Source: a virus (lineage: Duplodnaviria > Caudoviricetes). Taken from it: 64,000 bases of DNA. This document shows, piece by piece, positions 4,804-45,252 of the stretch. The stretch covers positions 1-64,000 of the IMG/VR virus record IMGVR_UViG_3300050509_000221; one strand, written 5' to 3'. Within the stretch, counting starts at the first letter, position 1. Each line of letters begins with the position of its first letter. The notes under the pieces were generated by a model. The model searched no databases. It saw nothing but the letters and a program-made list of their open reading frames with translations, and had not been told where the DNA came from. The position numbers and the translations under genes are program-made.

Positions 4804-5720
4804 GCGCTTCGCAGCGTGGGCTGCTCCCCCTCCGCGTCGGCGGCCTGTGGCGAGACGCGCGCGGCGACCCACTCCTGCGCCTCGGTCAAGCGCGAAGCCA
4901 GCAGGAACTCGGGGCGGCCGAACTGATCGAGGAACGCCTCCTTGGCCTTCACCTTCTCGCCTCGATCGGCGATCGTGTTGAGCTGCTCGACCATCGCGTC
5001 CACTGCCGCCCGCTCCGCGACCGGCTCGCCACCGGCGAGCCATTCCTTGTAGACGGTCGCGAACTCCTCAGCGTGTCCCGCGGTGAAGATCCGACCGACT
5101 GGCACTGCGTTGGTGCGCGACTTCCCGACCTGGAGCGCGTGCTGCATGTCGATCTCGATGGAGACGTTGACCTCGTACTCGAAGTCGTCGTCCTGTTGCG
5201 GGGCCATGCCGAGCTTGACGACCCTGATCTTGCCGTCCGCACCGACCTCTTGCGCGTGGTCCATGCGCGATCGGCAGCACGCGACGACATGGCAGTCCGC
5301 CTCGAGGATCGCCTCGGTGACATCGACCTGCGCCGGGCGCGCGTCCTTCCATCCCGTGAACTTCCCGTTGGCGATGTCGAGCGTGCCGCCGGCGCCGCGC
5401 CAGAAGTGCGTGAAGCTGTCGATGATGACGACGTCGTACGAGTCGCCGGCTTCCAGGAGTGTGTCGGCGAGCTCGCGTGGGTCGAACGGTGCGGACCAAC
5501 GCAGGTGCTCGAACGTGAAGAGGTCGGCGTAGGTGAGCGCCGATTCCTTCTCCGTGTCGACGACAAGGATGCGACCGTCCGGTCCGCCGAGCACCTCGGC
5601 GATCGTCAGCGCGGTGAACGTCTTGCCCGCGCCAGAGGGTCCGCCGAGGAGCATCTTGCCGTGCATCGCCGGGCGGATCGCCGCGCGGGCCTGCGTGAGC
5701 CTCGATTTCTTGGGTGCCAT
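4800..5720 (-). CDS. AAA_24 / Sak4-like ATPase (phage recombination)
   Basis: Walker A GPSGAGKT, Walker B VVIIDS; next to a Gam-like gene. Confidence 0.85.
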   Translation of the reverse strand: MAPKKSRLTQARAAIRPAMHGKMLLGGPSGAGKTFTALTIAEVLGGPDGRILVVDTEKESALTYADLFTFEHLRWSAPFDPRELADTLLEAGDSYDVVIIDSFTHFWRGAGGTLDIANGKFTGWKDARPAQVDVTEAILEADCHVVACCRSRMDHAQEVGADGKIRVVKLGMAPQQDDDFEYEVNVSIEIDMQHALQVGKSRTNAVPVGRIFTAGHAEEFATVYKEWLAGGEPVAERAAVDAMVEQLNTIADRGEKVKAKEAFLDQFGRPEFLLASRLTEAQEWVAARVSPQAADAEGEQPTLRSA

Positions 5721-5729
5721 GGGTCCTCC

Positions 5730-6332
5730 TCAGAGACGGGCGGTGTCATCGCCGTGGATCGACACCTCGAACTTCGGGTCTCGGCTTGTGACGGTCACGC
5801 CCGGTGGCGTCTCCCCGTCTTCGGTGACACCAAAAGCGATGGCGCGACCCTTGCCGTCGCGGCGTGTCAGCGCGTTCTTCGCTTCGGCCTTGTCGATCTC
5901 AGGGTCCGGGGCAGGCGGGTAACGCACCGCTTCGGGCGCATGGTCACGCGCCCACGCGATGAACGCTTCGTCGTCGAACTCCCACACCGGCTGCTGTGCC
6001 CGTGACGTGAGCGTCCCGTTGGGCAGCTCAATCGTCTTCGCCTTCGGGTTCTTCGCGAGGACCGCCGCGTGATACTGGGCAAGCTGGCCGGTGTGGTACT
6101 CGATCGCGCGGACGTGCTTCGCCTCCGCCGCTTCGAGCCACCGTTGCACTTGCTCGATCTGTGCTTCGGCGACTTCACGCAACGCGGCACGCTTACGGCG
6201 CTCGCGTGCCAGCCAGCCGATCGCACGGTTCGCCTCGAACGCGTCGGGGACCTCGATCGCTTCTGTCTCGTAGTCCGGCGGCTCGCCGAGCATGTCGACC
6301 TCGAGCTGTTCCCACGCATCGGCGATTGTCAT
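5730..6332 (-). CDS. Mu Gam-like host-nuclease inhibitor family protein
   Basis: Coiled coil followed by KTIELPNGTLTSR...DDEAFIAWA. Confidence 0.75.
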   Translation of the reverse strand: MTIADAWEQLEVDMLGEPPDYETEAIEVPDAFEANRAIGWLARERRKRAALREVAEAQIEQVQRWLEAAEAKHVRAIEYHTGQLAQYHAAVLAKNPKAKTIELPNGTLTSRAQQPVWEFDDEAFIAWARDHAPEAVRYPPAPDPEIDKAEAKNALTRRDGKGRAIAFGVTEDGETPPGVTVTSRDPKFEVSIHGDDTARL

Positions 6333-6553
6333 GTTCTTCCCTTCGTGTCCACGTCGACCAGTGCCCGTTCAGGCGCGCAACACTCCGGGTCGCGACACTC
6401 GCCATGCAGGCACGCCATCATCAGGTCGAACTCGTCGTCACCGACCGTCTCCTGCGCGTGTTCGTCACACATCGGGACACCGTCGATCCACCAGGCGGCG
6501 AGACGCGTACGGCGACCGGGACCGTCTGAGCACGGTTGACAACAACCCATCAT
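6329..6553 (-). CDS. Small Cys-rich hypothetical protein
   Basis: Coupled ORF. Confidence 0.5.
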   Translation of the reverse strand: MMGCCQPCSDGPGRRTRLAAWWIDGVPMCDEHAQETVGDDEFDLMMACLHGECRDPECCAPERALVDVDTKGRT

Positions 6554-6822
6554 TGGACCGCCAGCACATGCGCGTACGCCACGTCGGCACAGTGGTTCGC
6601 CAGGTCCCGCTCAGCCATCACGCGCGACACATACAGCAAGGTGCGAGCGTCGGTGAGAGTGCGCGTCGTGACTCGCCTGCCGTCCGGGCGACGACACCCC
6701 GTGTAGTAGACGCGGCCACGTCCATGACCGGTGCCGCGTTGTCGTTCGTTGCGACCGAGGACGATCACGTACCGCAGCCCACAACCGAGAACCTGGATGA
6801 CCTGCTCGCCAGCGACCGCCAT
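6550..6822 (-). CDS. Hypothetical protein
   Basis: Coupled ORF. Confidence 0.5.
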   Translation of the reverse strand: MAVAGEQVIQVLGCGLRYVIVLGRNERQRGTGHGRGRVYYTGCRRPDGRRVTTRTLTDARTLLYVSRVMAERDLANHCADVAYAHVLAVQ

Positions 6823-7016
6823 CAGACATCCGCCCCTGCTGCGGCGAGCAACGCGAACGCGACTTCCTGACGGAGTTGAAGGCGATGCTCACGCGCCCGG
6901 TCGGCCTGCACCGGGGAACGGAACCCGCCAGTGCGGTGCGCGTGGTCGATCGCGGTGATGGCCGCTTCGGCCTGTTCGATCGACGTCGGGACCAGCAACG
7001 TGTCGGAGTACGCCAT
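6822..7016 (-). CDS. Hypothetical protein
   Basis: TGATG coupling. Confidence 0.5.
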   Translation of the reverse strand: MAYSDTLLVPTSIEQAEAAITAIDHAHRTGGFRSPVQADRAREHRLQLRQEVAFALLAAAGADV

Positions 7017-7240
7017 CACGTCACCTGCGCCGCGGCGAACAACGCGGCCGGCTCGAGCAGCTCGGCGGTGGTAAACCCGAGCGCCCGGGCCGTGGCACGA
7101 ACGTGGGACGCGCCGAACGACGCGATCCACAGTGCGAGCTCGGCCGGGTTGTCATGCGCGTCGATCAACGCGGCGGCCTCGTCGGGCTGATCGTTGACGA
7201 CGAGGGTGAGGACCGCGATGGCGTCCTGTTGGACGGTCAC
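7016..7240 (-). CDS. Hypothetical protein
   Basis: Coupled ORF. Confidence 0.55.
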   Translation of the reverse strand: MTVQQDAIAVLTLVVNDQPDEAAALIDAHDNPAELALWIASFGASHVRATARALGFTTAELLEPAALFAAAQVT

Positions 7241-7491
7241 GACCGCCCCTTGAGCACCGCAGCGCGGAGCGCATGGCGGGTTGCGTCGCGGTCTGCGAGC
7301 AGTTCACACACCCGATCCCAGGTGTCCTGTGATGGGAGCTTCACCCCAGCGACCGCGGCGGCGTCCATGCGTGCGGAGTGCGGCAAGTCACGTGCGACAT
7401 CAGCGGGGACCTCGAACACGTCGAGGACGTCCGCGAGCGCCACGGCTTTCCGTTCGCGTGCGGCGACCTCATGGCCGTTGACGATCGTCAC
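7237..7491 (-). CDS. Hypothetical protein
   Basis: GTGA coupling. Confidence 0.55.
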   Translation of the reverse strand: MTIVNGHEVAARERKAVALADVLDVFEVPADVARDLPHSARMDAAAVAGVKLPSQDTWDRVCELLADRDATRHALRAAVLKGRS

Positions 7492-7895
7492 GGTGTCGCC
7501 CGACCAGCCACCACACGTGCGGCTTCTTCGGCCGCGCCGTGGGCGTCGTCTTCGTCGCGGGCGAAGAGCCACGCGTCGGCGTCTTGGAACGAGTCGAACG
7601 CGAGCGGCGAGTAGAGCGGGTCGCCCGTCTCCACGTCACACGGGTCCTCGGGGACCTTCGGCAGGAAGTCGTCGAGACCGCGACGCAACGCCGCGACGCT
7701 GTCGAAGTGCCAGATGCCCGCACCGTCAGGGCCGTCGCAACACAGGCAGCGCAACTCCCCGGCCTCGAAGAGGTGCACGCGGCATGCCGGACAGGTCGCG
7801 TCGTACTGGGCGTACGTGCCGTCGTCGTTGGCGTCGTAGCCGCACTGGTCGGCGTGGACAGGCGGGAGGGGAAGTAGCGTCGTGCTCATCGCCAT
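7488..7895 (-). CDS. Hypothetical protein with Cys clusters; first gene of early operon
   Basis: RBS GGAAGG; downstream of promoter 7960-7988. Confidence 0.6.
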   Translation of the reverse strand: MAMSTTLLPLPPVHADQCGYDANDDGTYAQYDATCPACRVHLFEAGELRCLCCDGPDGAGIWHFDSVAALRRGLDDFLPKVPEDPCDVETGDPLYSPLAFDSFQDADAWLFARDEDDAHGAAEEAARVVAGRATP

Positions 7896-32629: not shown

Positions 32630-32736
32630 TGCTCGTATCCGGCAGCGCGTGTCTCGAGTTCGGCGACGACGTTGCAGATCGCGATCGTGACGGTGAGTCC
32701 AACCGCGACGAGGAGCAGCCGTCGCCAGTGCGTCAT
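32626..32736 (-). CDS. 36-aa single-TM peptide
   Basis: MTHWRRLLLVAVGLTVTIAIC; ATGA and GTGA overlaps. Confidence 0.55.
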   Translation of the reverse strand: MTHWRRLLLVAVGLTVTIAICNVVAELETRAAGYEQ

Positions 32737-34085
32737 CGTGCATCCTCTCCTACCGGGGCGCGCAAGATCCGCGCGCTGAGGGCACGGTGAGCCGCGACCG
32801 GGTCGTCCAGGTGCGGCTTCGCCGCGTCAAGCAGCTCGGCGTGCGTGAGATGCGCGCCATTCAGCGCCGGGAGCGGGTAGCGGTTCGTGGATCCCGTCAC
32901 GAGGTCCCCGAGACGCTGAGCCTGGTCGCCGTCGAGGGGGCCGAACTCTTCGACGAGGTCAGCGCGCCCGGGACGCACGAGCGCCGGGTCGAGCGACGCG
33001 AGGTCGTTCGTGGTCATCACGGTCACCAGCCCATGAGGGGTGGCGATCCCGTCAAGCGCGTTCAGGAGACCTGAAAGCGTGACGCCCTTGCGGTCGTCGT
33101 CGCGTGTCGTTGCCGCGTGCACGACGTCGATGTCTTCGAGGATCAGCACGGAGCGTGCGTCAACGTTGGCGAGGAGCCCCATGAGGTGCGCGTCTGCCTC
33201 AAGGTCTGAGAGCGGGAGGAGATGCACGTCTAGGCCGAAGTGCCCAGCGAGCGCCGTTGCCAGTGACGTCTTCCCGCAGCCGGGCGGCCCGTGGAATAGC
33301 AGACCGTGATGCCATGGGATCCCGACCCGCGAGTACAGGCCCTCGGCGGCGAGGAACCCCGCGAGGTCAGCGACAATCCGCTCGCGCTGGTCGGCTGGAA
33401 GGATGACCGTGTCGAGCGACCTGAGTGGCACCTCGCGCACGCGGCGCCACTCACCCCACCGAGTCGCAATCCACATGCGTGGCCGGACCTCGCTCCCGGC
33501 GAGGCGTTCAGCGGCGAGCTGCGTGAGGAACGCAAGGACAGCGTCGCGTGACCGTTCGCCGTAGCAGGTGAACTCGACGGACTTCATGGCTCGCGACCAG
33601 GAGTCACCATGAGTGTTGACCGAGAGGGTGAGGCCTTCACCGAGGGACTTCTGGTTGATCTTCACTGAGACACGGTGACCTGCGATGCGGACGTTCTGCG
33701 CGACGGTCCCGTCGTAGAGGGCCCGCATGTCGGGCGGGTCCGTCTGACGGGACGAGCCCTCCGGCTCTATGGGCTGATCGTCGTACGAGCTGGCGCGGCG
33801 GCGTGTACGGATGGTCAGCGCGCGCCGTGACCGCGCTGGCACTTGATCGGTGAGCCAGTCGGAGATGGCGTCGTACACCTCGTCGGCCGCTGGGACGGAC
33901 ACGGTGTACGTGATCCTGCCGCGGCCCTTGTCGTACGCCTTCTTGCCAACCTCATAGACGGCGAGACCGACTGTGAGCGCGCGTGCGGCGCGCAGGGTGC
34001 GCGGGCCCTTCGCGAGGGCGAGCGCAGGACGCAACCAGCCCGCCCCGGCGTTCTCGGGAACAGCGAGGCGTTCGGTCACACTCAC
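32733..34085 (-). CDS. BCS1-type AAA ATPase
   Basis: BCS1_N-like N-terminus; GPPGCGKT, LEDID, TLSGLLNALDG, TTN..LDPALVRPGR. Confidence 0.85.
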   Translation of the reverse strand: MSVTERLAVPENAGAGWLRPALALAKGPRTLRAARALTVGLAVYEVGKKAYDKGRGRITYTVSVPAADEVYDAISDWLTDQVPARSRRALTIRTRRRASSYDDQPIEPEGSSRQTDPPDMRALYDGTVAQNVRIAGHRVSVKINQKSLGEGLTLSVNTHGDSWSRAMKSVEFTCYGERSRDAVLAFLTQLAAERLAGSEVRPRMWIATRWGEWRRVREVPLRSLDTVILPADQRERIVADLAGFLAAEGLYSRVGIPWHHGLLFHGPPGCGKTSLATALAGHFGLDVHLLPLSDLEADAHLMGLLANVDARSVLILEDIDVVHAATTRDDDRKGVTLSGLLNALDGIATPHGLVTVMTTNDLASLDPALVRPGRADLVEEFGPLDGDQAQRLGDLVTGSTNRYPLPALNGAHLTHAELLDAAKPHLDDPVAAHRALSARILRAPVGEDAR

Positions 34086-34378
34086 CGGTCGAGGGTGATG
34101 CCGTCGCGGTGTCGTTCCACGGCCGGGTCGTCGAGCACCTTGATCCGTAGTCCCGCGGCACGGATCCACCCGAGGTTCAACGTGAGTCGCGGCTTGCCCG
34201 TCGCCACGATGCTCTCGGTGTCTGCGACGTCGTAGTCGAGGCCGCCGATGGCGATGCCGTCGTACATGACGGTGCCGTTCGGTCGCACCTCGATCGGCCA
34301 GTCGACCTGACGTTCGATCGGCAGCCAGCCCTCGATCGGCTCGTCGATGGGCGTCGTAGGGTTGTCGTTGGTCGGCAT
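34082..34378 (-). CDS. Hypothetical protein
   Basis: RBS GGAGG; coupled ORF. Confidence 0.6.
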   Translation of the reverse strand: MPTNDNPTTPIDEPIEGWLPIERQVDWPIEVRPNGTVMYDGIAIGGLDYDVADTESIVATGKPRLTLNLGWIRAAGLRIKVLDDPAVERHRDGITLDR

Positions 34379-34410: not shown

Positions 34411-35136
34411 TCAGTCCGCGGCCGCGATTGCTTCCTCGATCGCGGCGCAGTGGTCGTCGATCAGACCCCGTGCCCGTCCCGGTAGGCCGCCGAGCGCAGC
34501 GACTAGCGCGACGTCGGCGAGTCGTTCGGGGAGTTCGTCGTCGATCGCGGCGGGACCACCGTCACCGCCGATGTACACCTCACCGGAGAGTCCCGCAGCA
34601 CGGCGCATGAGCGGGAAGCCGGGGTTGTTGACGAGCTGCGCGCCGGTCATGTCCCACGCCTTCGAGTGCGGGTGGACACGCCAGTCGCCCGACAGGGCAG
34701 ACGCACGCGCGACGGCGAGTTGGAGGTCGTCGACGTCGGGCCAGAGGGCACCGAGGGCGATGATGTGCCCGTCGTGGTCCTGGTACCGGACTCGCATGAT
34801 CTGGCTTGCGGTGTTGTCGTAGTGCTTCACCGCTTCGTCGAACCGGGCGGAGACCCGCGCATGGTTCACACCGCCACCGATGTTCGCGGTGTGGACGAGG
34901 TCACCTTCGGCGGTGATCGTGTCGCCCTGGTGTGCGGCGGCGTACGCCGTTGGGGAGACCGGTGGTCGCCAGCAGCCGGGTTGGCCGTCGAGGATGCACT
35001 GGTCGTGTGGCGCGATGGTCGCGGCGACACGGCCGGCTTCGTCGCCGTCGGTGACGATCGTCAGGTGTTCACCGACGGTGAACCAGTCCGGCAGTTCGTC
35101 GAACCAGGCGCGGGGCGGGTGGAGCGGGAAGAGCAC
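34411..35136 (-). CDS. Putative capsid maturation protease-like protein
   Basis: Head module position; GRVAA..A...C..G..C..PP and SGDWR motifs resemble actinophage prohead protease domains. Confidence 0.45.
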   Translation of the reverse strand: MLFPLHPPRAWFDELPDWFTVGEHLTIVTDGDEAGRVAATIAPHDQCILDGQPGCWRPPVSPTAYAAAHQGDTITAEGDLVHTANIGGGVNHARVSARFDEAVKHYDNTASQIMRVRYQDHDGHIIALGALWPDVDDLQLAVARASALSGDWRVHPHSKAWDMTGAQLVNNPGFPLMRRAAGLSGEVYIGGDGGPAAIDDELPERLADVALVAALGGLPGRARGLIDDHCAAIEEAIAAAD

Positions 35137-35334: not shown

Positions 35335-35359
35335 GCGGGGCGACGGTACGCATCGCCCC

Positions 35360-37099
35360 TCAAACGCTCAGGGACTCCAACTCGGCGGTGGGGCCTGTCG
35401 TGTACGGCTCGTAGGACTCTTCGATCGTGCAGGTGCAGCCGTCGTGGTCGCCAGGCTGGTACACGTCGACATACGGGAAGGCGGCGGGGTCCGCGGCGAG
35501 TTCGTCGGGTTGGGTGTCGACCCAGGTGACACCGTCGAGGGCTTGGTGTGGCTCGAACGTCCGGGCCGGGTCGCCATGGACCCATGTGGACCTGACGATC
35601 ACGGGGACGTTCGTGTCGGTGAGGAGCTGCCCGGCGAGGGTGGTGCCGGGTTCGACGCGTGGGATGGGTGTCGTGGGAACGGGACCGGGGCCGGTTTCGG
35701 CACGGAGAGGCGCGGTCGCGTTGGTGGCGCCGAGTGCCCATGTGGAACGCACGAGCGAGAACGGCACGGGCCCCGCCTGCTCCCCGAGTGCATCACCCGC
35801 GATGTCGCCGGCGAGGCGGGCACGGGCGAGAAGCGCGACACCGGCGGCGAGGAACCCGGCTGCGGTGTGGGCACGTCGGTCGATTTCGTCTTCCCACTGG
35901 TCGTCGGGTTCGACGCCAAGCGCGCGGGCCGTGGCGCGCAGCTTGCGGAGTTCGGCGGTGACGATCCACCCTTCGGCGGCGAGGGCCAGTTCGTCGAAGC
36001 GTTTGTCGAGGAGTTCTTGTTCGGTGACACCCAACGCGGCGACCAGCGCCGGGGGGTACCGGCCGTCAGCAGCGTTGAGCGCGGCACGTTGCGCGTTGTT
36101 GCGGGCCTTCTGGTTGAGCTTCACGGTCGCGGCGCGGACTGCTTCGGCGAGGGCGACTTGGGCGGCGGCGTGGAGTTTGACGCGGAGGCGTTGGTCGGTC
36201 TGGTTGAGGGTGCGGGACAAGCCGGCGAGCCGGTCGCTCTCGACTCGTGCGAGCGCCGCGGTGACGGGTTGGGTCCACGGGTCTGCGTGCTGGCGGTTCG
36301 TCAGCGGATAGAACGCCGAGCTGTCACCCCACACCAACGCGACCTGATCGGCGGTCCACTCGACCGGGGCCGGAAGCGGGCCGGGTTCCATCCCTGCGGG
36401 GAGTGCATCGGCGGGCCAGTACCCGAGCGTGAGGTGGGGATGGAACGCGAACCGGTCGGAGTGTTCGATGTCGCCGAGTGCTTGGCGGAGCCGCTCACGG
36501 AGGTCATACACGGCGGGGGCACCGGTGACGAGCACCACAGGGCTGATGCCATCCTCGTTGGCCGGGAACACGTCGAGGTGCGTGAAGGACAGCGCGACGG
36601 GTTCCATCGTTGGCGTCACCGCCCGTAGCCTGTCCGCGATGCGGACGTGTTCGGCTGGTGCGAGGTCGTCGCTCTTCCCGAGGAAGAAGAGGGTGACGTG
36701 CATGTTGTCGGCCGGTTCGCCGTCCGACACGGCGAGCCGTTCCGCGATCGAAGACGGGCAAGTGAGCGCGACCATCGCGCCTGCGCCTTCCATGCCGGAC
36801 ACGGCGGCGACCTCGACGTCAGCTTCGTACGGTTGGATCTGGTCGACCCACACGCGGGCCGGACGGCCGCCGTAGAGACCGGCGAGCATCGTGGACGCGT
36901 CGCCTTTCACTTCGTCGGGGTGGTCGCGATGCCAGGCGTGGAGCTCGTCGAGTTCGTGGCCGGTGACGACCCCGGTCGTGAGCGCGGTTGCGATGGTGAC
37001 GCCGCGGGCGGTGCCACCCTGGCCGCGTTCGGCTCGGGTGTGGAGCGCCGCGCGGGCGGTGCGGGCGACGTCTTCGGGGACAGCGAGAAGGTCGGTCAC
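35360..37099 (-). CDS. MuF-like head morphogenesis protein with internal 2H phosphoesterase domain
   Basis: HVTL and HLTL motifs; C-terminal W..GD..R..H..LDG...PG...CTC. Confidence 0.75.
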   Translation of the reverse strand: MTDLLAVPEDVARTARAALHTRAERGQGGTARGVTIATALTTGVVTGHELDELHAWHRDHPDEVKGDASTMLAGLYGGRPARVWVDQIQPYEADVEVAAVSGMEGAGAMVALTCPSSIAERLAVSDGEPADNMHVTLFFLGKSDDLAPAEHVRIADRLRAVTPTMEPVALSFTHLDVFPANEDGISPVVLVTGAPAVYDLRERLRQALGDIEHSDRFAFHPHLTLGYWPADALPAGMEPGPLPAPVEWTADQVALVWGDSSAFYPLTNRQHADPWTQPVTAALARVESDRLAGLSRTLNQTDQRLRVKLHAAAQVALAEAVRAATVKLNQKARNNAQRAALNAADGRYPPALVAALGVTEQELLDKRFDELALAAEGWIVTAELRKLRATARALGVEPDDQWEDEIDRRAHTAAGFLAAGVALLARARLAGDIAGDALGEQAGPVPFSLVRSTWALGATNATAPLRAETGPGPVPTTPIPRVEPGTTLAGQLLTDTNVPVIVRSTWVHGDPARTFEPHQALDGVTWVDTQPDELAADPAAFPYVDVYQPGDHDGCTCTIEESYEPYTTGPTAELESLSV

Positions 37100-37449
37100 G
37101 GCAGGGCGAGGGCGGATGGCTTCACGTCCCACCGCTTTTCTTCTGAGCCGCCGGGGCCGGTGAACTCCACGTGCGCGGCCCACTTGCCTGAGGTGGTTGA
37201 GGTGATCGCGATGTGGAAGAGGCCGGTGTCGTCGCGGACAAGTTCGGGGTCGGTGCCGTAGGTCTTCAACGTGCCGGCGGTGCCTTCGGGGCCGTACCGG
37301 ACGGTGAGGGTGTCCGGGTCCACCAGTTCAGGAGTGTCGAGTGACGCGCCGGTGTCAGGGTCGGTGAGTCGTTGGACACGGATGCGGAGCACGTGTTCGA
37401 CGCCGGGGAACATCAGCGGTGTGTCCTCTCGGGGGCCATCTAACAGCAC
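37096..37449 (-). CDS. Small beta-rich structural/adaptor protein
   Basis: Ig-like composition; analogous to 61772-62137. Confidence 0.6.
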   Translation of the reverse strand: MLLDGPREDTPLMFPGVEHVLRIRVQRLTDPDTGASLDTPELVDPDTLTVRYGPEGTAGTLKTYGTDPELVRDDTGLFHIAITSTTSGKWAAHVEFTGPGGSEEKRWDVKPSALALP

Positions 37450-38813
37450 GTCTCCAGGTCGAGGTCAACGCGGACGGTAGCGACGAGACGGAGTCCTGCG
37501 GCGGTTTCGCATGCGAGCGCGAGAGAGCTGAGCGTGTCGTCGTGTTGTTCGATGACGACGAGGGTGGGGCAGGCGAGTTGGAGAGCCGCGAGCGCGGTGG
37601 GGGTTAGCGCGAGCGTGACGCACGCGTCACCGCCAGCGGGCGCAACGATGGTGACGGTCTCAGTTTCGGTGACGACCGCGGCGGCGTCGGCGTCGGTGAG
37701 TGTTGCGAGGATGTCCGCGAGGTCGTCAACCGCGATGCCTGCGTCGGTGTCTGTGACAGCGACGGTCACTTGCTCGAGGTCGTCGCTTGTGCCCTGGTCG
37801 GTGTCGACAAGTTGGGCGGCGGCCGCTTCGGCTTCTGTCGTTGTGGCTGCCTCGCTGTCTGTCAGAGCTGCGGCGATGGCAGCTTCGAGGTCACTCGCTG
37901 TTCCGGTGTCGTTGTCCGCGACGGGAACCGCGAGGAGTTCCCCTTCGCCGCCGGTGCCGGTGTCGTCCGCGCCGGTGAGCACGATGGCCGTCTCGGCCTC
38001 GACGCCTACGGCTGCGTCGTCGCCCGCGATCGTTGCGGTCATGGTTTCGCCCGCGTCGGCTGCGGTGGCAACGTCGGAGTCAGTAAGAGCGACGCCTGCT
38101 TCGGCGTCGGCGGCAGTGGCGGTGTCGCCGTCGGACTTCTGGACGTTGGTGCCGTCGAGCTCGAGCGCGATGCCGAGGAGCCGGTCGTTCGCGGCACTGA
38201 CCGTCGCGTCGATGCTCGTGTCGTTCGCTGTGCGCCACTCGAACCCGATGCGGATGGAGTCGCTGCGGTTCGCGATGGTCTGTGAGAACTCGCCGATCAT
38301 CGTGAACCCGGAGCCCGCGGTGAGGTCGAGCGCACCACCCGCGTTGTCGTACGACCCGAAGAACGCGACGGTGCCATTCGCTGCGTTCGCGAACGCTGCG
38401 AGAGTCACGGTGAGACTGTCGGCCGCGGTCTGGCCGACGGCCTTCTGCACCACGCCGTTGTTCGTCGTCGGGTTCACCCCGGCGACTTCCACGACACACC
38501 ACGCCGCGCCTTCGACGGTGCCCGCACCGGTGATGCCACTGAACGTCAACGCGCCCGGCGTCACGGACGCAGGGTCGGCCCACGCGCGGAACGCCACGAG
38601 GAACGGGTCGGTGTTGGCGCTGCCTATCACGTCGATCTGTGTCCACGTCAAGCCACACCCGGCCAGCGTGGGGACCGCCACGTCACCATTCCGCGCGACC
38701 TCAATCCCGACGAGGATGGTCGTGCCAGGCGTGGGGCTGATCGACGCGGTCGCGTAACTCGACGCGTCGGCGTCGGAACCGTCCGCGGTGAGAACGGTCG
38801 GGCTGATCGCCAC
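37440..38813 (-). CDS. Putative head fibre/decoration protein with acidic repeats
   Basis: Beta-rich N-domain plus recurring T/SDxD units; Ala/Thr/Asp-rich. Confidence 0.6.
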   Translation of the reverse strand: MAISPTVLTADGSDADASSYATASISPTPGTTILVGIEVARNGDVAVPTLAGCGLTWTQIDVIGSANTDPFLVAFRAWADPASVTPGALTFSGITGAGTVEGAAWCVVEVAGVNPTTNNGVVQKAVGQTAADSLTVTLAAFANAANGTVAFFGSYDNAGGALDLTAGSGFTMIGEFSQTIANRSDSIRIGFEWRTANDTSIDATVSAANDRLLGIALELDGTNVQKSDGDTATAADAEAGVALTDSDVATAADAGETMTATIAGDDAAVGVEAETAIVLTGADDTGTGGEGELLAVPVADNDTGTASDLEAAIAAALTDSEAATTTEAEAAAAQLVDTDQGTSDDLEQVTVAVTDTDAGIAVDDLADILATLTDADAAAVVTETETVTIVAPAGGDACVTLALTPTALAALQLACPTLVVIEQHDDTLSSLALACETAAGLRLVATVRVDLDLETCC

Positions 38814-38820
38814 TGGCGTC

Positions 38821-39471
38821 TCAGGTGATCGTGATAGTGACCGTCAACGTCCACGCCGCAGCGGACGTCTTCGTGCCAAGCGACGTGACCTTCCGATTGA
38901 TGAGCCCTGGGGTGGTGTTCCCCTCGGAGGTGACGGTCGTGCCGTCCGCGGTGCCGCCATCGATGCCCCACTCCGACCATGCGAAGTTGGCGTCGCCGGT
39001 CTCGAACGTCGCGACGAACGTGAGGACACCCGACGACGCGCCCGTCCCAACCGCGGGTGCGGAGTCGACGAGCTCGAACTGCCGGTTGCCGGACCCCGCC
39101 GCGGCGGAGAGATCGGTGTCGGTGTTCGCGAACGCGGTGGAGCCGTTCCCGACCCCGATGCGGCAGTGTGTCGCGTCGAGCGCCTGATTCGACGCGGTGC
39201 CGGCGAGGCGGTCCATGATGCGGCGGAGGCCTTGACGGGTGAGCGCGTTGCCGACGTCCTCCACGACTTCGTGCGGGACGAACGTCTCGTGGAGGGCCTG
39301 CGAGAGCGGGATCTGCCGCTTGACCGCGATGACCTTCGCGGCGGCTTCCTGCTCCGCGGTGAACTTCCTGACGGTGATGCGCGGCTTCCACAACGCCGAG
39401 TCGGCGTCGCGCAGCAGCGCGTACACCTGCTCGAGGTCGAGACCTTCGGCGGTGTCGGTGTCCGTGGTCAT
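38821..39471 (-). CDS. Structural protein (fibre-collar/decoration-like)
   Basis: GVGNGSTA..NTDT.L...TF..TF....ANFAW.E.G motif. Confidence 0.6.
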   Translation of the reverse strand: MTTDTDTAEGLDLEQVYALLRDADSALWKPRITVRKFTAEQEAAAKVIAVKRQIPLSQALHETFVPHEVVEDVGNALTRQGLRRIMDRLAGTASNQALDATHCRIGVGNGSTAFANTDTDLSAAAGSGNRQFELVDSAPAVGTGASSGVLTFVATFETGDANFAWSEWGIDGGTADGTTVTSEGNTTPGLINRKVTSLGTKTSAAAWTLTVTITIT

Positions 39472-39803
39472 GCGGGCTCCTCGAACGGCGGGGGCGCGTC
39501 GGGAACGCGTGTCGGGTCGTACGGCACCGGTAGTGGTGCAGGGCGACCGATCACCAAGCCGTCGAGCGCGTCGGCGTCGCGGTCCTGTTCCCACAAGACG
39601 TACTCACCCTGGTCGTCGGCGGCGAGGATCGTGACGTGTGTGATGCGCGCCTCGGGCAGGGACCGGATGTAGTCCTTCGCCGCGTCGAGGGTGCCGAAGT
39701 CGTAGACCTTGTCTTCCCACACGTCGTCAGGTTCGCCGTCTAACCAACCCTTGAGGGGGTTCCCGGCGACGCAGGCGATGAGGCTGACTGTGACGGCGTC
39801 CAT
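39468..39803 (-). CDS. Hypothetical protein
   Basis: Coupled ORF. Confidence 0.55.
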   Translation of the reverse strand: MDAVTVSLIACVAGNPLKGWLDGEPDDVWEDKVYDFGTLDAAKDYIRSLPEARITHVTILAADDQGEYVLWEQDRDADALDGLVIGRPAPLPVPYDPTRVPDAPPPFEEPA

Positions 39804-39844: not shown

Positions 39845-41305
39845 TCAGTCGAGCCAGCCGGTCAACTCGCCCGGGAACGGCCCCAACGGGACCGTCTCAC
39901 GCACACGTGACCGTGCATCGAGAGACCCCGCGACCGGCTGGCCGGGCAACACGCGGGGCGACGACCCATCGACTGGTTGGCCGTCGCGGCGGCGGGCGAT
40001 GACTGCCATGCGTTGCACCCACCGTTCCAGCTCGGCCGTGTCGGGTGCCTGCGCGACATCGAAGCCGGTGACGTCAAGCAACGCCCGGTCGGAGATCACC
40101 CCCAGGTTGTACAGCTCGATCGCGAGTTGCGACTGGTTCGGATGCACCACCACCGGTGACATGTCGAACCCGACGCGGTACCGGTCAGGGTCACCATCCC
40201 AGACGCCACGCCGGCGCAACACTTCGAGGCCGGGACGCAGGAACGAACGGGTGAGGTCACCCCAGCAGACCCGTTCGAGCGCGGGGGCGAGGGCGTTCTT
40301 CGCGAACTGTTCCTCGAGGAGCCAGTCGGCCCAGTGGTTGCCGTCACCGACACCGGCGACGAGGAGTCGTTGTGGGTAGTCGAGGCCCCGGCCGATCGCT
40401 TCGAGAGCTTCGTTACGCCAGGGGATGGCCTGCGCGTCGAACGGTTGTGACAGGTCAACCACTTCGGGCTTGCCGTACGAGTGCTTCCAACGCCACATCA
40501 TCGGCGTGATCGACTCGACTGCGTCGTCGTCGGAGAACATGCGTTGCGCAGCGGCGTAGTAGTCCCGTTCGAGTTCGGTGCCGGGACCATGGCCTGTGGG
40601 ATCCTGCGCGGCGCGAGCAAGGTGAGTGTGGGCTTCGTCGGGTGTCCACACAACCTTGCTCATCCCGAGCGCACTGTCAGCGGTGCGGGCCATGCGTCGT
40701 TGCAACGACCAGTACCGCTCACAGTCAGGCAGCACCGCCTTGAGGGACGACACCGACCGGCCGTTCCACGTCTCGTCAGGGATCCACAGGCGAGCAACCT
40801 GCGCGTAGGTGAGCTCGCGGGCAGTGCCGTCACGGACGGTGCCGCCGGGGACGTCACGGATGATGACCCGGTCGTTCTTCCATTCGACCGCACGAGGGGA
40901 GTGTATCCCGAACGACAGGCGGCCGTTCACCGCGACATGGGTTTGGAGGGCTTCGCCGAGTACCTCGTAATGCCACAGGTGCAGACGGACCAGCTCGCGT
41001 TGGTCTTGAGTCTCGCCCCGGTATTGGCGGAGGAGGTCTTGGGGGGCGAGTTCGCGGGTGACGGGTTCCCATTCGTCGGAGCGTGGGTCGGTGAGTTTCT
41101 CGACGATCAGGTCGCATCGTGACCCCGAGTTGGCTTTGAGGCCGGCTGCGAAGCGGATGACGCCGAGGTTCTCGGAGAAGTGTGTGGCGCGTTCCCACCA
41201 GTGCTGCTTGACGGACCGGGATGTGCGCGCCCAGGTCGGGTCGATCGGGGTGGTTGCGGCGACACGCACGTCGGGGGTGCGTCGGAACCAGTCGCGTATG
41301 CCCAT
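39845..41305 (-). CDS. Portal protein
   Basis: 486 aa after terminase; W.P......SSL..VL and GDGNHWADW motifs. Confidence 0.8.
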   Translation of the reverse strand: MGIRDWFRRTPDVRVAATTPIDPTWARTSRSVKQHWWERATHFSENLGVIRFAAGLKANSGSRCDLIVEKLTDPRSDEWEPVTRELAPQDLLRQYRGETQDQRELVRLHLWHYEVLGEALQTHVAVNGRLSFGIHSPRAVEWKNDRVIIRDVPGGTVRDGTARELTYAQVARLWIPDETWNGRSVSSLKAVLPDCERYWSLQRRMARTADSALGMSKVVWTPDEAHTHLARAAQDPTGHGPGTELERDYYAAAQRMFSDDDAVESITPMMWRWKHSYGKPEVVDLSQPFDAQAIPWRNEALEAIGRGLDYPQRLLVAGVGDGNHWADWLLEEQFAKNALAPALERVCWGDLTRSFLRPGLEVLRRRGVWDGDPDRYRVGFDMSPVVVHPNQSQLAIELYNLGVISDRALLDVTGFDVAQAPDTAELERWVQRMAVIARRRDGQPVDGSSPRVLPGQPVAGSLDARSRVRETVPLGPFPGELTGWLD

Positions 41306-42624: not shown

Positions 42625-45252
42625 TCAACGACGCAACGACCCCGCGGCTGCTCCCGCCGCCGCGCTGATCCCACCCGACGTTGCGCCTTCTTGGCGGATC
42701 CAGTTGAACCCATGCGCGCCCGCGTCGACTTGGTCGTCATGGTCCCCGAGGGGGAACCCCTCCAACTCGGCGAGGAACACCCGGCTCCCCGACCGGTGCC
42801 CGTCGCGGTCCGGTGCCTGCTCGACGATCGTGACGAGACCGTTTTCCATCGCGGATGCCATCCCCGCCGCCCGGTCTTCTTTCGTGCCGATCGGGGAGAC
42901 CTTCGTCGCACGGAACCCGGCGAACACCTCGCGTACGAGCCGGTCGGCTTCGTCGCGGCCCAGGTCCCCCGGGCGGCGCTCCACAAGGTGAGTCACCGCG
43001 TCGATGCCGCCGCATTCGTCGGCGTCAGCGCGGGCGGTGGCACGCATGATGTTGTCGCGGGTGCCTGCGGCGTGACGGAACCGGACGATGTCCTCGATGC
43101 GGTACCGGTGCGTGTCGGGGTCGTAGGCCCATCGGACACCGACGGTCCAGTCCGGGTCGTTCTTCCCGTCGAACTCGGTGCCGGCCTGGTCCCACGCCCG
43201 GCACCGTTTCACCGTCGGCTCATACGACATCGGGCCGTCCGTCCAGTGGTCCTTCATCCAGTCCCACGCGGCGAACTTCCCACCAGAGCGGAGCTCCACC
43301 TGATGTTGCGCCTCGATGAGGAACGCGGTGCGGCCCCACAGCTTGATCTGCTGGCGGATCTGATCGGGCCCCTGACCGTCCCAGACGATGTCACCCTCGA
43401 GGTACGTGTCGAGGCCGTCGTTGTCCTTCCCGAGCACCAGGCCCCGCACCGCGGGGACCGGGCCGTCGCCCCACATGACACGATCCTGGAGGAAATCGGC
43501 TGACTGTTCCGCGAGGCCCGCGATGCGAGCAAAGACACCGTTGGGGAGAACGAGGTTCTGCACGGCAAGGACCGTGCCGTTCGGTGCCAGCGCGGGGAGG
43601 AACGTGCGGGTGAGTTGGTCGATCTTGCGGGCCGTGACTTTCGGGCTGTCGTTGGCGTCGTCGATGTCGTCGAACACGATGAGGTCGGGGCGTTCCTCGT
43701 CAAGTTTCGCTCCCCGCGCAGCAGAGTCGAGACCGATCGCGTCGACGGTGAACCCGGCCGCGGAACGAAGTCGTTCGCGTCGCCATCCTCGGGAGCGGCC
43801 GAACTTGTTGACGAGTTGCTCGCCGATCTCCGGGTACAGGTCAGCGACCCGGGGCGACTCGAGAAGTTTCCCGACGTTGCCGACATGGTCTTCGGCTTGG
43901 TCTTGGGTGTCGCAGTTGTGCGATCGGGCGAAGTGCGTCCGGTAGTCACCGGTTGATGTGGTGATGGACACGAACCGGCGTTCCGTCACCGGGTCGACGG
44001 TCTTCACCCGTGACCACAGATGGCCTTCGCCGATCCACACATCGCGGAGCTGGTTGCGATGTTGGCCTGCCGGAAGTCCCAGTGGGCGGCCGTCGAAGAA
44101 CCGGAGTGCGTAGCCGGACGCCTCCCTGATGGCGCGTCCGCGGATGTGTCCTCCACCGCGGCGATGGGGGCCACTGATCGTGCAGGCAACACCGAGACGA
44201 GCAAGCATCCGTCGGACTGCTAGGAGGCCTGGCAGATGCACGCCCGACAGATAGACGCCACGAGCGCTCACGTATCCGTCGGCGTCCACGTAGCCCCTCA
44301 GCAGGGCTGCCTGCTGAGTTGCAGGCAGCCACTCGACCCAGGCTGGCGGCGTCTTCCGACTGTTGCCGTACTTCCACGTGCGTAGCCAGTCAGCAAGGTC
44401 CGGAAGCCAGAACGACACCGAGCTCAGGCGGCCTTGACCGCGCCGCTCACCCCAGCAGACGCCACTCCGGTCCAGGAGGCTCAGCAGGCGTCGGCGAACG
44501 GCAGGGTGGTCGTCGGACAGTGCGAAGGAAATCTGGCGTCCCTGCGGCCCGCCGAGCGTGCCGTCACCCCACCAGAGACCGGTCGCCCACCACCACTCGG
44601 GGTCCGCGAGGAGCGGACTCGGCCAGGACTCTGGCACCTCGGAAGTGGTGTCGATGGGCAACCCGAGCCACGTTGAACGGTCCAGGTTATGCGCCTCAAC
44701 CCACGCAGGTTCTCCCCGAGTGATCTCGACGCGACGCCCGTGGCCGCGGTCGCGGCGCATGATCCGACGTGCCCAGTACCGGTGCTCGGCCGTGACTACC
44801 TCGCTGCTCGGGAGTCCCACCACACGCACCTCCAGGCCATCACAGCGCCGTTCGGTGGCCGTCGGGTGCTCGTCCACGGTCATCCAGCCGAAGTCGGGAT
44901 CGAGAACCTCCGTCCCGGTCTCGTGGCACACGTAGAGGACGTACCTGCGACGGCCTCTGGCGCCGGCGGCAGCGAGGGCGAGTTCGACTGAGGTTGACTT
45001 CGCTCCGCCTCGGGCCCAGATCCCCACGCCGGGCTGTTGCCACCGGTCTAGTTCCAGGGCCCAGACCCAGTTCCAGAAGTCGATGTGGTGGGGGGCGAAA
45101 CCGGCGGTGACGTAGCTGGGGAACAGGTAGCGGAGCCAGGCGCCCCAGGATTCCTCGAGTTCGTCGCGCAAGCACACCATGAGCGCGGTGACGTCCGCGG
45201 GGTCGTGTGCCTGGCCGATGGCTTCCCGGTACAGGTCGAGGTCGACGGTCAC
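42625..45252 (-). CDS. terL: Terminase large subunit (intein-containing)
   Basis: Walker A RGGAKST, Walker B IVFDDID, nuclease AWDQA and DDQVDA. Confidence 0.92.
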   Translation of the reverse strand: MTVDLDLYREAIGQAHDPADVTALMVCLRDELEESWGAWLRYLFPSYVTAGFAPHHIDFWNWVWALELDRWQQPGVGIWARGGAKSTSVELALAAAGARGRRRYVLYVCHETGTEVLDPDFGWMTVDEHPTATERRCDGLEVRVVGLPSSEVVTAEHRYWARRIMRRDRGHGRRVEITRGEPAWVEAHNLDRSTWLGLPIDTTSEVPESWPSPLLADPEWWWATGLWWGDGTLGGPQGRQISFALSDDHPAVRRRLLSLLDRSGVCWGERRGQGRLSSVSFWLPDLADWLRTWKYGNSRKTPPAWVEWLPATQQAALLRGYVDADGYVSARGVYLSGVHLPGLLAVRRMLARLGVACTISGPHRRGGGHIRGRAIREASGYALRFFDGRPLGLPAGQHRNQLRDVWIGEGHLWSRVKTVDPVTERRFVSITTSTGDYRTHFARSHNCDTQDQAEDHVGNVGKLLESPRVADLYPEIGEQLVNKFGRSRGWRRERLRSAAGFTVDAIGLDSAARGAKLDEERPDLIVFDDIDDANDSPKVTARKIDQLTRTFLPALAPNGTVLAVQNLVLPNGVFARIAGLAEQSADFLQDRVMWGDGPVPAVRGLVLGKDNDGLDTYLEGDIVWDGQGPDQIRQQIKLWGRTAFLIEAQHQVELRSGGKFAAWDWMKDHWTDGPMSYEPTVKRCRAWDQAGTEFDGKNDPDWTVGVRWAYDPDTHRYRIEDIVRFRHAAGTRDNIMRATARADADECGGIDAVTHLVERRPGDLGRDEADRLVREVFAGFRATKVSPIGTKEDRAAGMASAMENGLVTIVEQAPDRDGHRSGSRVFLAELEGFPLGDHDDQVDAGAHGFNWIRQEGATSGGISAAAGAAAGSLRR
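43915..44928 (-). mobile_element. Intein (338 aa) with LAGLIDADG homing endonuclease
   Basis: C1 (CHETG), block B TAEH, ATGLWWGDG and LRGYVDADG, terminal HN followed by C+1. Confidence 0.9.

Follow-up and report, generated by a model that had tools for sequence, protein, structure and literature searches.

What is an enzyme domain doing in a head protein of an uncultured tailed phage? This question is raised by a gene at 35360..37099 of the window, the whole stretch of 64,000 nucleotides analysed here, which covers positions 1 to 64,000 of the IMG/VR virus record IMGVR_UViG_3300050509_000221 (Duplodnaviria; Caudoviricetes; 82,663 bp, approximately 68% G+C, estimated to be 98% complete). The gene, like all features located below in the window, lies on the minus strand, and encodes a protein of 579 amino acids with an N-terminal domain (N-domain), a 2H phosphoesterase domain and a helical/MuF-like C-terminal module (C-module). 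As the best explanation, we propose that the product would be a MuF/SPP1-gp7-type minor head protein associated with the portal, from a divergent clade missed by Pfam, with an anchor-plus-cargo design. The C-module, perhaps together with the N-domain, would bind the portal and so enter the procapsid, while the middle slot would bear an exchangeable enzyme, in this phage a LigT-type 2H phosphodiesterase. A few copies per head would leave with the DNA at infection, and the injected enzyme would act as a hydrolase on a cyclic phosphate or a 2'-5'/3'-5' phosphodiester, the substrate being either a signalling nucleotide of host immunity or the 2',3'-cyclic-phosphate RNA ends produced by host defence RNases. 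That the protein is packaged and injected, that it counters defence and what it cleaves are all inferences on our part; the overall explanation, with a packaged and injected 2H domain, is slightly favoured in our judgement, and an anti-defence role of the 2H cargo is quite possible, with somewhat less in its favour than against it.

Gene start and domain architecture

The GTG start codon at 37099-37097 shares the letters GTGA with the TGA stop codon of the upstream 117-amino-acid gene. An alternative GTG lies upstream at 37183; the database copy of the protein (P0002) and all homologues start at 37099 instead. Because of the GTGA overlap and the homologue starts, GTG 37099 was taken as the start, and the coordinates of an earlier note, made from the letters of this DNA alone, are therefore right. 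The G+C content at the three codon positions (0.76/0.52/0.81) was typical of coding sequence in this genome. An AlphaFold2 model of the protein, based on 56 homologues, had a mean predicted local distance difference test (pLDDT) score of 88.6 and showed three domains (residues 1-89, 103-268 and 280-570) joined by two low-confidence, disordered linkers at residues 90-102 and 269-279. The earlier note had described an N-terminal block, a central 2H domain and a C-terminal motif; all three were recovered by Pfam, the alignments and the model, and we hold the three-domain architecture with high confidence.

The 2H phosphoesterase domain

The LigT/ThpR-like 2H phosphoesterase domain (36296..36793; residues 103-268) matched two Pfam families, namely, PF13563 (E 2.3e-15; 57.4 bits, cut-off 27) and PF02834 (E 1.3e-6; 28.9 bits, cut-off 23.3). 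The two HxT motifs claimed earlier are present as H134-x-T136 (HVT, in MHVTLF; 36692..36700) and H222-x-T224 (HLT, in HPHLTLGY; 36428..36436), and both catalytic histidines are CAC codons at exactly the positions that had been given (36700-36698 and 36436-36434). Across eight orthologues, both motifs and 31 domain positions were invariant, with a mean identity of approximately 48% in the 2H domain and 50-59% in the other domains, and the fold was modelled at pLDDT >90. As judged from these alignments, the domain is catalytically intact, with its HxT motifs under purifying selection. Since the motifs are invariant and the domain is conserved about as well as the structural parts of the protein, the 2H domain is apparently an active enzyme.

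For structural ranking, the predicted model was used as a query in Foldseek, and VIA-align was then run on Foldseek's list. The nearest solved structures were free-standing bacterial and archaeal RNA 2',3'-cyclic phosphodiesterases, with Z 13.5-15.5 for the LigT type: Deinococcus CPDase 5h7e (Z 15.5, root-mean-square deviation (rmsd) 3.5, 158 residues aligned), Pyrococcus 1vdx (Z 14.7), Thermus 1iuh (Z 14.3) and E. coli LigT (Z 14.1, rmsd 2.6, 147 aligned). Usb1 (Z 13.3, rmsd 3.2, 157 aligned), AKAP18 (Z 12.3), the rotavirus VP3 2',5'-phosphodiesterase (Z 12.1), a Burkholderia phage phosphodiesterase (Z 10.2), Acb1 7t27 (Z 8.5, rmsd 3.9, 129 aligned) and the penguinpox cGAMP phosphodiesterase (Z 8.0) scored lower. 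The profile TIGR02258 gave E 4e-10 and 39.7 bits, under its cut-off of 65.7. No other 2H domain was found in this genome, and a word-based search for free-standing 2H-domain relatives of 96-308 amino acids returned none at E ≤1e-3.

The earlier note had brought the domain into connection with Acb1, the phage enzyme that degrades the cyclic nucleotides of the cyclic-oligonucleotide-based antiphage signalling system (CBASS). This kinship was not borne out: the Acb1 hidden Markov model (HMM) PF23474 fell short of its cut-off of 27 with only 11.8 bits (E 0.21), and the Acb1 structure lay far behind those of the LigT type, so that membership of the Acb1 family was rejected. Profiles and model together place the domain as LigT-like and outside the Acb1 family; this placement does not settle the substrate and leaves room for CBASS cleavage.

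The C-terminal module and its link to the portal

The C-module begins with a long-helix region (35618..36262; residues 280-~494; model helices 280-331, 369-394 and 402-429), which always precedes the MuF-like core and directly follows the portal in relatives. The core (35405..35617; residues ~495-565), located by conserved columns, hhalign and structural neighbours in BFVD, has the signature W506, R513, H518-x-x-L-D-G and P549-G-D551-H552-x-G-C555-x-C557, or overall W..R..H..LDG...GDHxGCxC. No other feature of this very large family is conserved as well as this motif: W506, H518, D551, H552, C555 and C557 hardly vary, if at all, in at least 146 relatives, and the H/H/C/C set of the motif is a probable metal site. 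Inteins (PF14890) were observed in P0011, P0029, P0030 and P0035 at one site, before the first Cys of GDHxG-CxC (window ~35435-35449); the P0011 insert starts with CFPVGT and ends with VHN. Their insertion at this site marks GDHxG-CxC as the part on which the function of the MuF-like module centres.

A profile built from seven short family members was searched against 1.84 billion representative proteins and detected 924 relatives, 608 of them at E ≤1e-10. In most of the 924, the module forms the C-terminal ~300 residues of a protein of ~800 amino acids. One of these proteins, P0087, is homologous in its residues 1-440 to the portal of this phage (26% identity over 458 amino acids, E 2e-18), and PF04860 (portal) was found in 4 of 69 relatives. 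In the portal-fused giants P0063, P0156 and P0157, a 2H domain of the same clade as that of the target lies directly ahead of the helical and MuF-like module; P0063 and P0156 are portal-2H-MuF-like chains. Gene order agreed with these fusions. In the related contig L004, a 2H-bearing homologue comes directly after the portal and is followed by homologues of the 64- and 241-amino-acid genes found downstream of the target, and the IMG/VR contig L005 has a homologue with Nudix downstream of its portal. Together with the position of the target gene in a portal-to-protease head module, these results bear out the head-protein context proposed in the earlier note. Because the C-module is fused to portals (a Rosetta-stone relationship), as for SPP1 gp7, capsid targeting is favoured; we infer a capsid location, and packaging into heads is, on balance, probable. 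In SPP1, the portal takes a few copies of gp7 into the procapsid, where gp7 aids infection; without gp7, assembly is unaffected but only ~25% of virions are infectious (PMC6316719; PMC5576092).

The resemblance of the C-module to MuF was examined at the levels of profile and structure. From a set of 42 bona fide PF04233 proteins related to SPP1 gp7, 20 were aligned for profile comparison; hhalign placed the conserved W, H, LDG, P and CxC of the family on the invariant W216, H228, L231-D232-G233, P253, C265 and C267 of the gp7 set. Single-sequence tests gave E 0.06 and 0.68, matches of PF04233 to relatives were weak (E 0.25, 4.7e-4 and 0.0095), and hhalign of small profiles against RoadKill gp13 yielded an irrelevant match of 14 columns. 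A separate model of the C-module had a pLDDT of 91.3 and a predicted TM-score of 0.88, and its BFVD neighbours were almost all named minor capsid, head morphogenesis, minor head, zeta toxin domain or portal proteins, at modest E values (1.5e-4 to 5e-2) and low TM-scores. A sequence-profile search of the PDB produced only chance matches (E ≥1).

Several points weigh against the proposal of a portal-associated, MuF-type carrier of an anti-defence enzyme. The hhalign alignment described above is a weak link (E 0.0026 over 60 columns, with a probability of only 11.6%). PF04233 matched neither the target at E ≤1 nor any part of the 82.6-kb genome at E ≤10, and the family HMM found nothing in the genomes of SPP1, Mu and the Gordonia phage RoadKill. 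A PDB-wide structural search with the C-module retrieved generic helical bundles only (Z ≤6.1), a result that says nothing on the novelty of the fold, and we know of no solved MuF structure with which the model could be compared. Three genes stand between the portal and the target in this phage. SPP1 gp7 is present at ~1-2 copies per capsid, which would mean that very little enzyme is delivered, and LigT and the CPDases act on RNA>p or 2',3'-cyclic nucleoside monophosphates (2',3'-cNMP), not on CBASS or CRISPR signals. The C-terminal MuF-like motif of the earlier note thus stands as a conserved motif in a head context, and fails as a match to the PF04233 HMM. We place the C-module, from its profile relationships, as apparently MuF-like, in a divergent sister clade rather than within Pfam PF04233.

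The N-domain and the exchangeable slot

The helical N-domain (36833..37099; residues 1-89) has the pattern GGTARG...WH...LYGG..R.W. The block GGTARG...LYGG...W recognized in the earlier note proved to be part of a conserved 89-residue domain with ten positions (G28, T30, W56, H57, T70, G74, G77, G78, R82 and W84) invariant in 15 homologues. No Pfam match was obtained at E ≤1. The N-domain HMM matched 2H, Nudix, DUF7701 and empty forms of the protein and no portal fusion, indicating that the domain is confined to stand-alone family members. Its structural neighbours in the ESM Atlas, at TM 0.61-0.65 over 87-89 residues and a lead only, are short domains of viral proteins in which they are joined to Peptidase_S78 prohead proteases, portals or capsid proteins; DUF5824, DUF3721 or DUF5872 occurs in some of them. 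Our guess is that the N-domain is a head- or portal-docking element, and these modelled similarities raise the idea that such a domain may serve more generally to target proteins to the head interior.

Between these two conserved parts, the content of the protein varies. The 2H domain is present in eight of the 15 closest homologues; the other seven lack exactly that segment, with the N-domain and the C-module kept. One short form (P0012) keeps the last strands of the 2H domain, and this remnant indicates a deletion. In somewhat more distant relatives, the slot holds a Nudix hydrolase (P0023, P0025, P0028, P0033, P0035, P0027, P0117 and L005) or, in P0020, DUF7701 at residues 90-177 (PF24792, E 1.3e-27), a position which suggests that this uncharacterized domain is a further capsid-borne effector. 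P0071 has the layout of a classical MuF protein with a C-terminal ADP-ribosyltransferase.

A maximum-likelihood tree of the chassis was built from 35 rows (17 starred branches), 32 of which were scorable for the slot. Slot forms were interleaved within well-supported clades of this tree. The minimum number of slot-state changes among the 32 rows was 13, whereas shuffled labels needed 15 on average and 11 at the least; based on the closeness of 13 to the shuffled mean, slot content is almost uncoupled from chassis phylogeny. By this comparison of sequences, the slot content behaves as exchangeable cargo. Because assembly does not need the 2H domain, and because the domain is conserved wherever it occurs and often exchanged, its behaviour is that of an accessory weapon, not that of a morphogenetic part.

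Alternative explanations

The earlier note had also raised a role in RNA or tRNA repair, possibly linked to the phage tRNA. The 2H domain would then open, for religation, the 2',3'-cyclic phosphate ends of tRNAs or mRNAs that anticodon nucleases or toxin RNases of the host have cut, and might protect the tRNA-Met of the phage. The identity of its closest structures, LigT/ThpR and Deinococcus CPDase, which are RNA 2',3'-cyclic phosphodiesterases, the weak TIGR02258 match under the cut-off and the presence of one tRNA gene agree with this idea. Against it, no Rnl1, Rnl2-type or RtcB ligase was detected at E ≤1 in the 82.6-kb, 98%-complete genome; the single tRNA-Met gene is 8 kb distant from the target, in another gene block, and the slot is filled with Nudix or empty in close relatives. 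In addition, 2H domains linked to MuF or portal proteins never occur with RNA ligases according to Iyer et al. 2017 (PMC5512222). The proposed link to the phage tRNA therefore found no backing, and tRNA repair was rejected as the main explanation for want of a ligase and of linkage to the tRNA; we consider RNA repair improbable. The same 2H-MuF and 2H-portal fusions led Iyer et al. to propose either Usb1-like RNase activity or degradation of defence nucleotides (PMC5512222). An offensive RNase of this kind, a 3'-5' exo- or endoribonuclease leaving cyclic phosphates, would be injected against host RNAs such as CRISPR or regulatory RNAs, and Usb1 is indeed a close structural neighbour of the 2H domain. 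The scores of the LigT-type structures exceed that of Usb1, although the top rows are only ~1-2 Z apart, and Pfam detected no RNA-binding domain beside the 2H domain, which makes this explanation very unlikely.

Injection itself could also be dispensed with. In a producing cell late in infection, the 2H domain might clear signal nucleotides or cyclic-phosphate products when capsid-sensing defences fire, with the tether to the head either incidental or serving to concentrate the enzyme. The gene is indeed translationally coupled within a late head operon, and no sequence feature proves ejection. Against such late action, the cargo occupies the same position whether the N-domain or a whole portal serves as the anchor, which is hard to explain unless capsid location matters, and MuF/gp7 proteins sit inside the procapsid (PMC6316719). 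We regard late action without injection as unlikely. The remaining alternative, in which the 2H domain serves as a structural spacer or as a decayed, non-catalytic passenger in what is simply a head-assembly factor, is scarcely credible. Seven close homologues without 2H show that the domain is not needed for assembly, as expected of a passenger, but its HxT motifs and 31 positions are invariant in eight orthologues at ~48% identity and its fold is modelled with high confidence.

Neighbouring genes in the head operon

The target belongs to a late run of minus-strand genes in the order TerL, a 195-amino-acid gene, the portal, genes for 257, 457 and 117 amino acids, the target, a 64-amino-acid gene and a 241-amino-acid gene. 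The portal (39845..41305) matched phrog_776 (E 9e-48). Of the three genes between the portal and the target, that for 257 amino acids (38821..39594) matched only phrog_23653, of unknown function, that for 457 amino acids (37440..38813) had no family match, and that for 117 amino acids directly upstream of the target (37096..37449) was without informative matches. The C-terminal half of the 457-amino-acid protein contains a long Ala/Thr/Asp-rich low-complexity stretch. A G+C-rich inverted repeat, GGGGCGA...TCGCCCC (35335..35359), lies between the stop codon of the target and the ATG of the next gene.

The 241-amino-acid protein (34411..35136) resembles modules of the head-maturation-protease type (phrog_18402, E 5.6e-18, and others), and its homologue in L004 is syntenic with the target (tblastn, 45% identity). 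It showed matches of ~150 residues to several long PHROG profiles, including head maturation protease, portal protein and virion structural protein, and no Pfam match. By these profiles, it appears to be a head-module domain that is often fused to others. Next come a BCS1-type AAA ATPase (32733..34169; BCS1_N, E 3.8e-11, and AAA, E 4.4e-20) and genes for glycosyl- and methyl-transferases; the succession of the ATPase, a glycosyltransferase and an FkbM methyltransferase within a head module is an unusual location. At the other end of the run, the large terminase of 875 amino acids (42625..45252) contains LAGLIDADG_3 (PF14528, E 1.4e-10) at residues 313-374. This insert, a probable intein bearing a homing endonuclease, separates the ATPase from the nuclease part, in which Pfam recognizes Terminase_6C at residues 686-847.

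Megablast of 15 kb around the target against cultured phages gave no match, a scan of 185,579 species genomes revealed no prophage copies, and a scan of viral contigs yielded only two loci.

Comparison with known systems

Fusions of 2H and Nudix domains to MuF or portal proteins have been predicted to be injected counter-defence enzymes (PMC5512222; PMC9503650). In the head-packaged effector/polyvalent class, as defined in the former paper, an enzyme is joined to a head-anchoring domain and encoded among late packaging genes, and both features were found in the target. Like the 2H-MuF/portal proteins described in both papers, the target combines an intact 2H domain with a MuF-type module in a late head operon without an RNA ligase, and Nudix and ADP-ribosyltransferase occur in sister architectures. 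Unlike those proteins, it is not fused to a portal, it has the 89-amino-acid N-domain in the place of the portal, and its MuF-like module has diverged beyond the reach of PF04233. Neither PMC5512222 nor PMC9503650, in the portions considered here, describes an exchange at one slot of 2H, Nudix, DUF7701 or an empty state on near-identical backbones.

The target shares with SPP1 gp7 and Mu gpF a gene position near the portal, an aligned C-terminal W...R..H..LDG...P...CxC and structural neighbours so named. It differs from them in the lack of an HMM-level match and in its enzyme, since neither gp7 nor gpF carries one; in this comparison, gp7 alone has been shown to bind the portal and to be present in the virion (PMC6316719). 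With E. coli LigT/ThpR and Deinococcus radiodurans CPDase, its best structural matches, the 2H domain has 20-23% identity and two HxT motifs in common, but these are free-standing cellular enzymes, whereas the target 2H is a domain within a phage head protein. The Acb1 proteins of T4 and FBB1 are also phage-encoded members of the same superfamily with a catalytic HxT pair; unlike the target, Acb1 is a small free protein that is not known as a head component.

Among cultured phages, the nearest 2H domains (35-39% identity) are those of giant head-module proteins of Gordonia and Arthrobacter phages, such as RoadKill gp15. In RoadKill, the 2H protein is likewise encoded among the head genes, flanked by those for MuF and the major capsid protein. 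There, in contrast to the target, the 2H domain is in a separate 960-amino-acid protein, and a canonical PF04233 MuF protein, gp13 (E 3.5e-13), is encoded beside it. In sister phages, annotations of the gene for the 960-amino-acid protein (4888-7770 in RoadKill) vary among RNA ligase, capsid maturation protease and hypothetical protein. Since its sole Pfam match is a 2H domain at residues 439-548, the name 'RNA ligase' is probably misleading.

Significance

The idea of an injected signal-degrader is already published, in 2017 and 2022, for 2H-MuF/portal fusions (PMC5512222; PMC9503650). Added here are a stand-alone chassis with an N-domain instead of a portal, an internal cargo, rapid exchange of the slot and a MuF-like clade outside PF04233. 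This clade is large (>600 representative clusters at E ≤1e-10) and escapes the Pfam MuF model, and many actinophage head proteins now called 'hypothetical' could gain an annotation from it.

Action from the capsid ahead of the first transcript has been predicted for the 2H-MuF/portal class since 2017, and we know of no member that has been assayed. Near-identical chassis with 2H, Nudix, an unknown domain or nothing form a clean test set that isolates the contribution of the cargo. Tentatively, as a possibility rather than an expectation, the family might be a plug-in delivery platform, in which a portal-docking chassis of N-domain and MuF-like module swaps small enzymes that cleave nucleotides or RNA ends (2H, Nudix and DUF7701) through its slot almost as fast as random assortment would, so that the phages meet whatever signalling defences their current hosts have, with the 2H form, delivered by the virion, degrading an immune second messenger before phage genes are expressed. 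To our knowledge, the characterized phage destroyers of immune nucleotides, namely, Acb1, Apyc1 and the ring nucleases, are all made after infection starts. If the proposal is true, a capsid-borne enzyme would act ahead of the first transcript.

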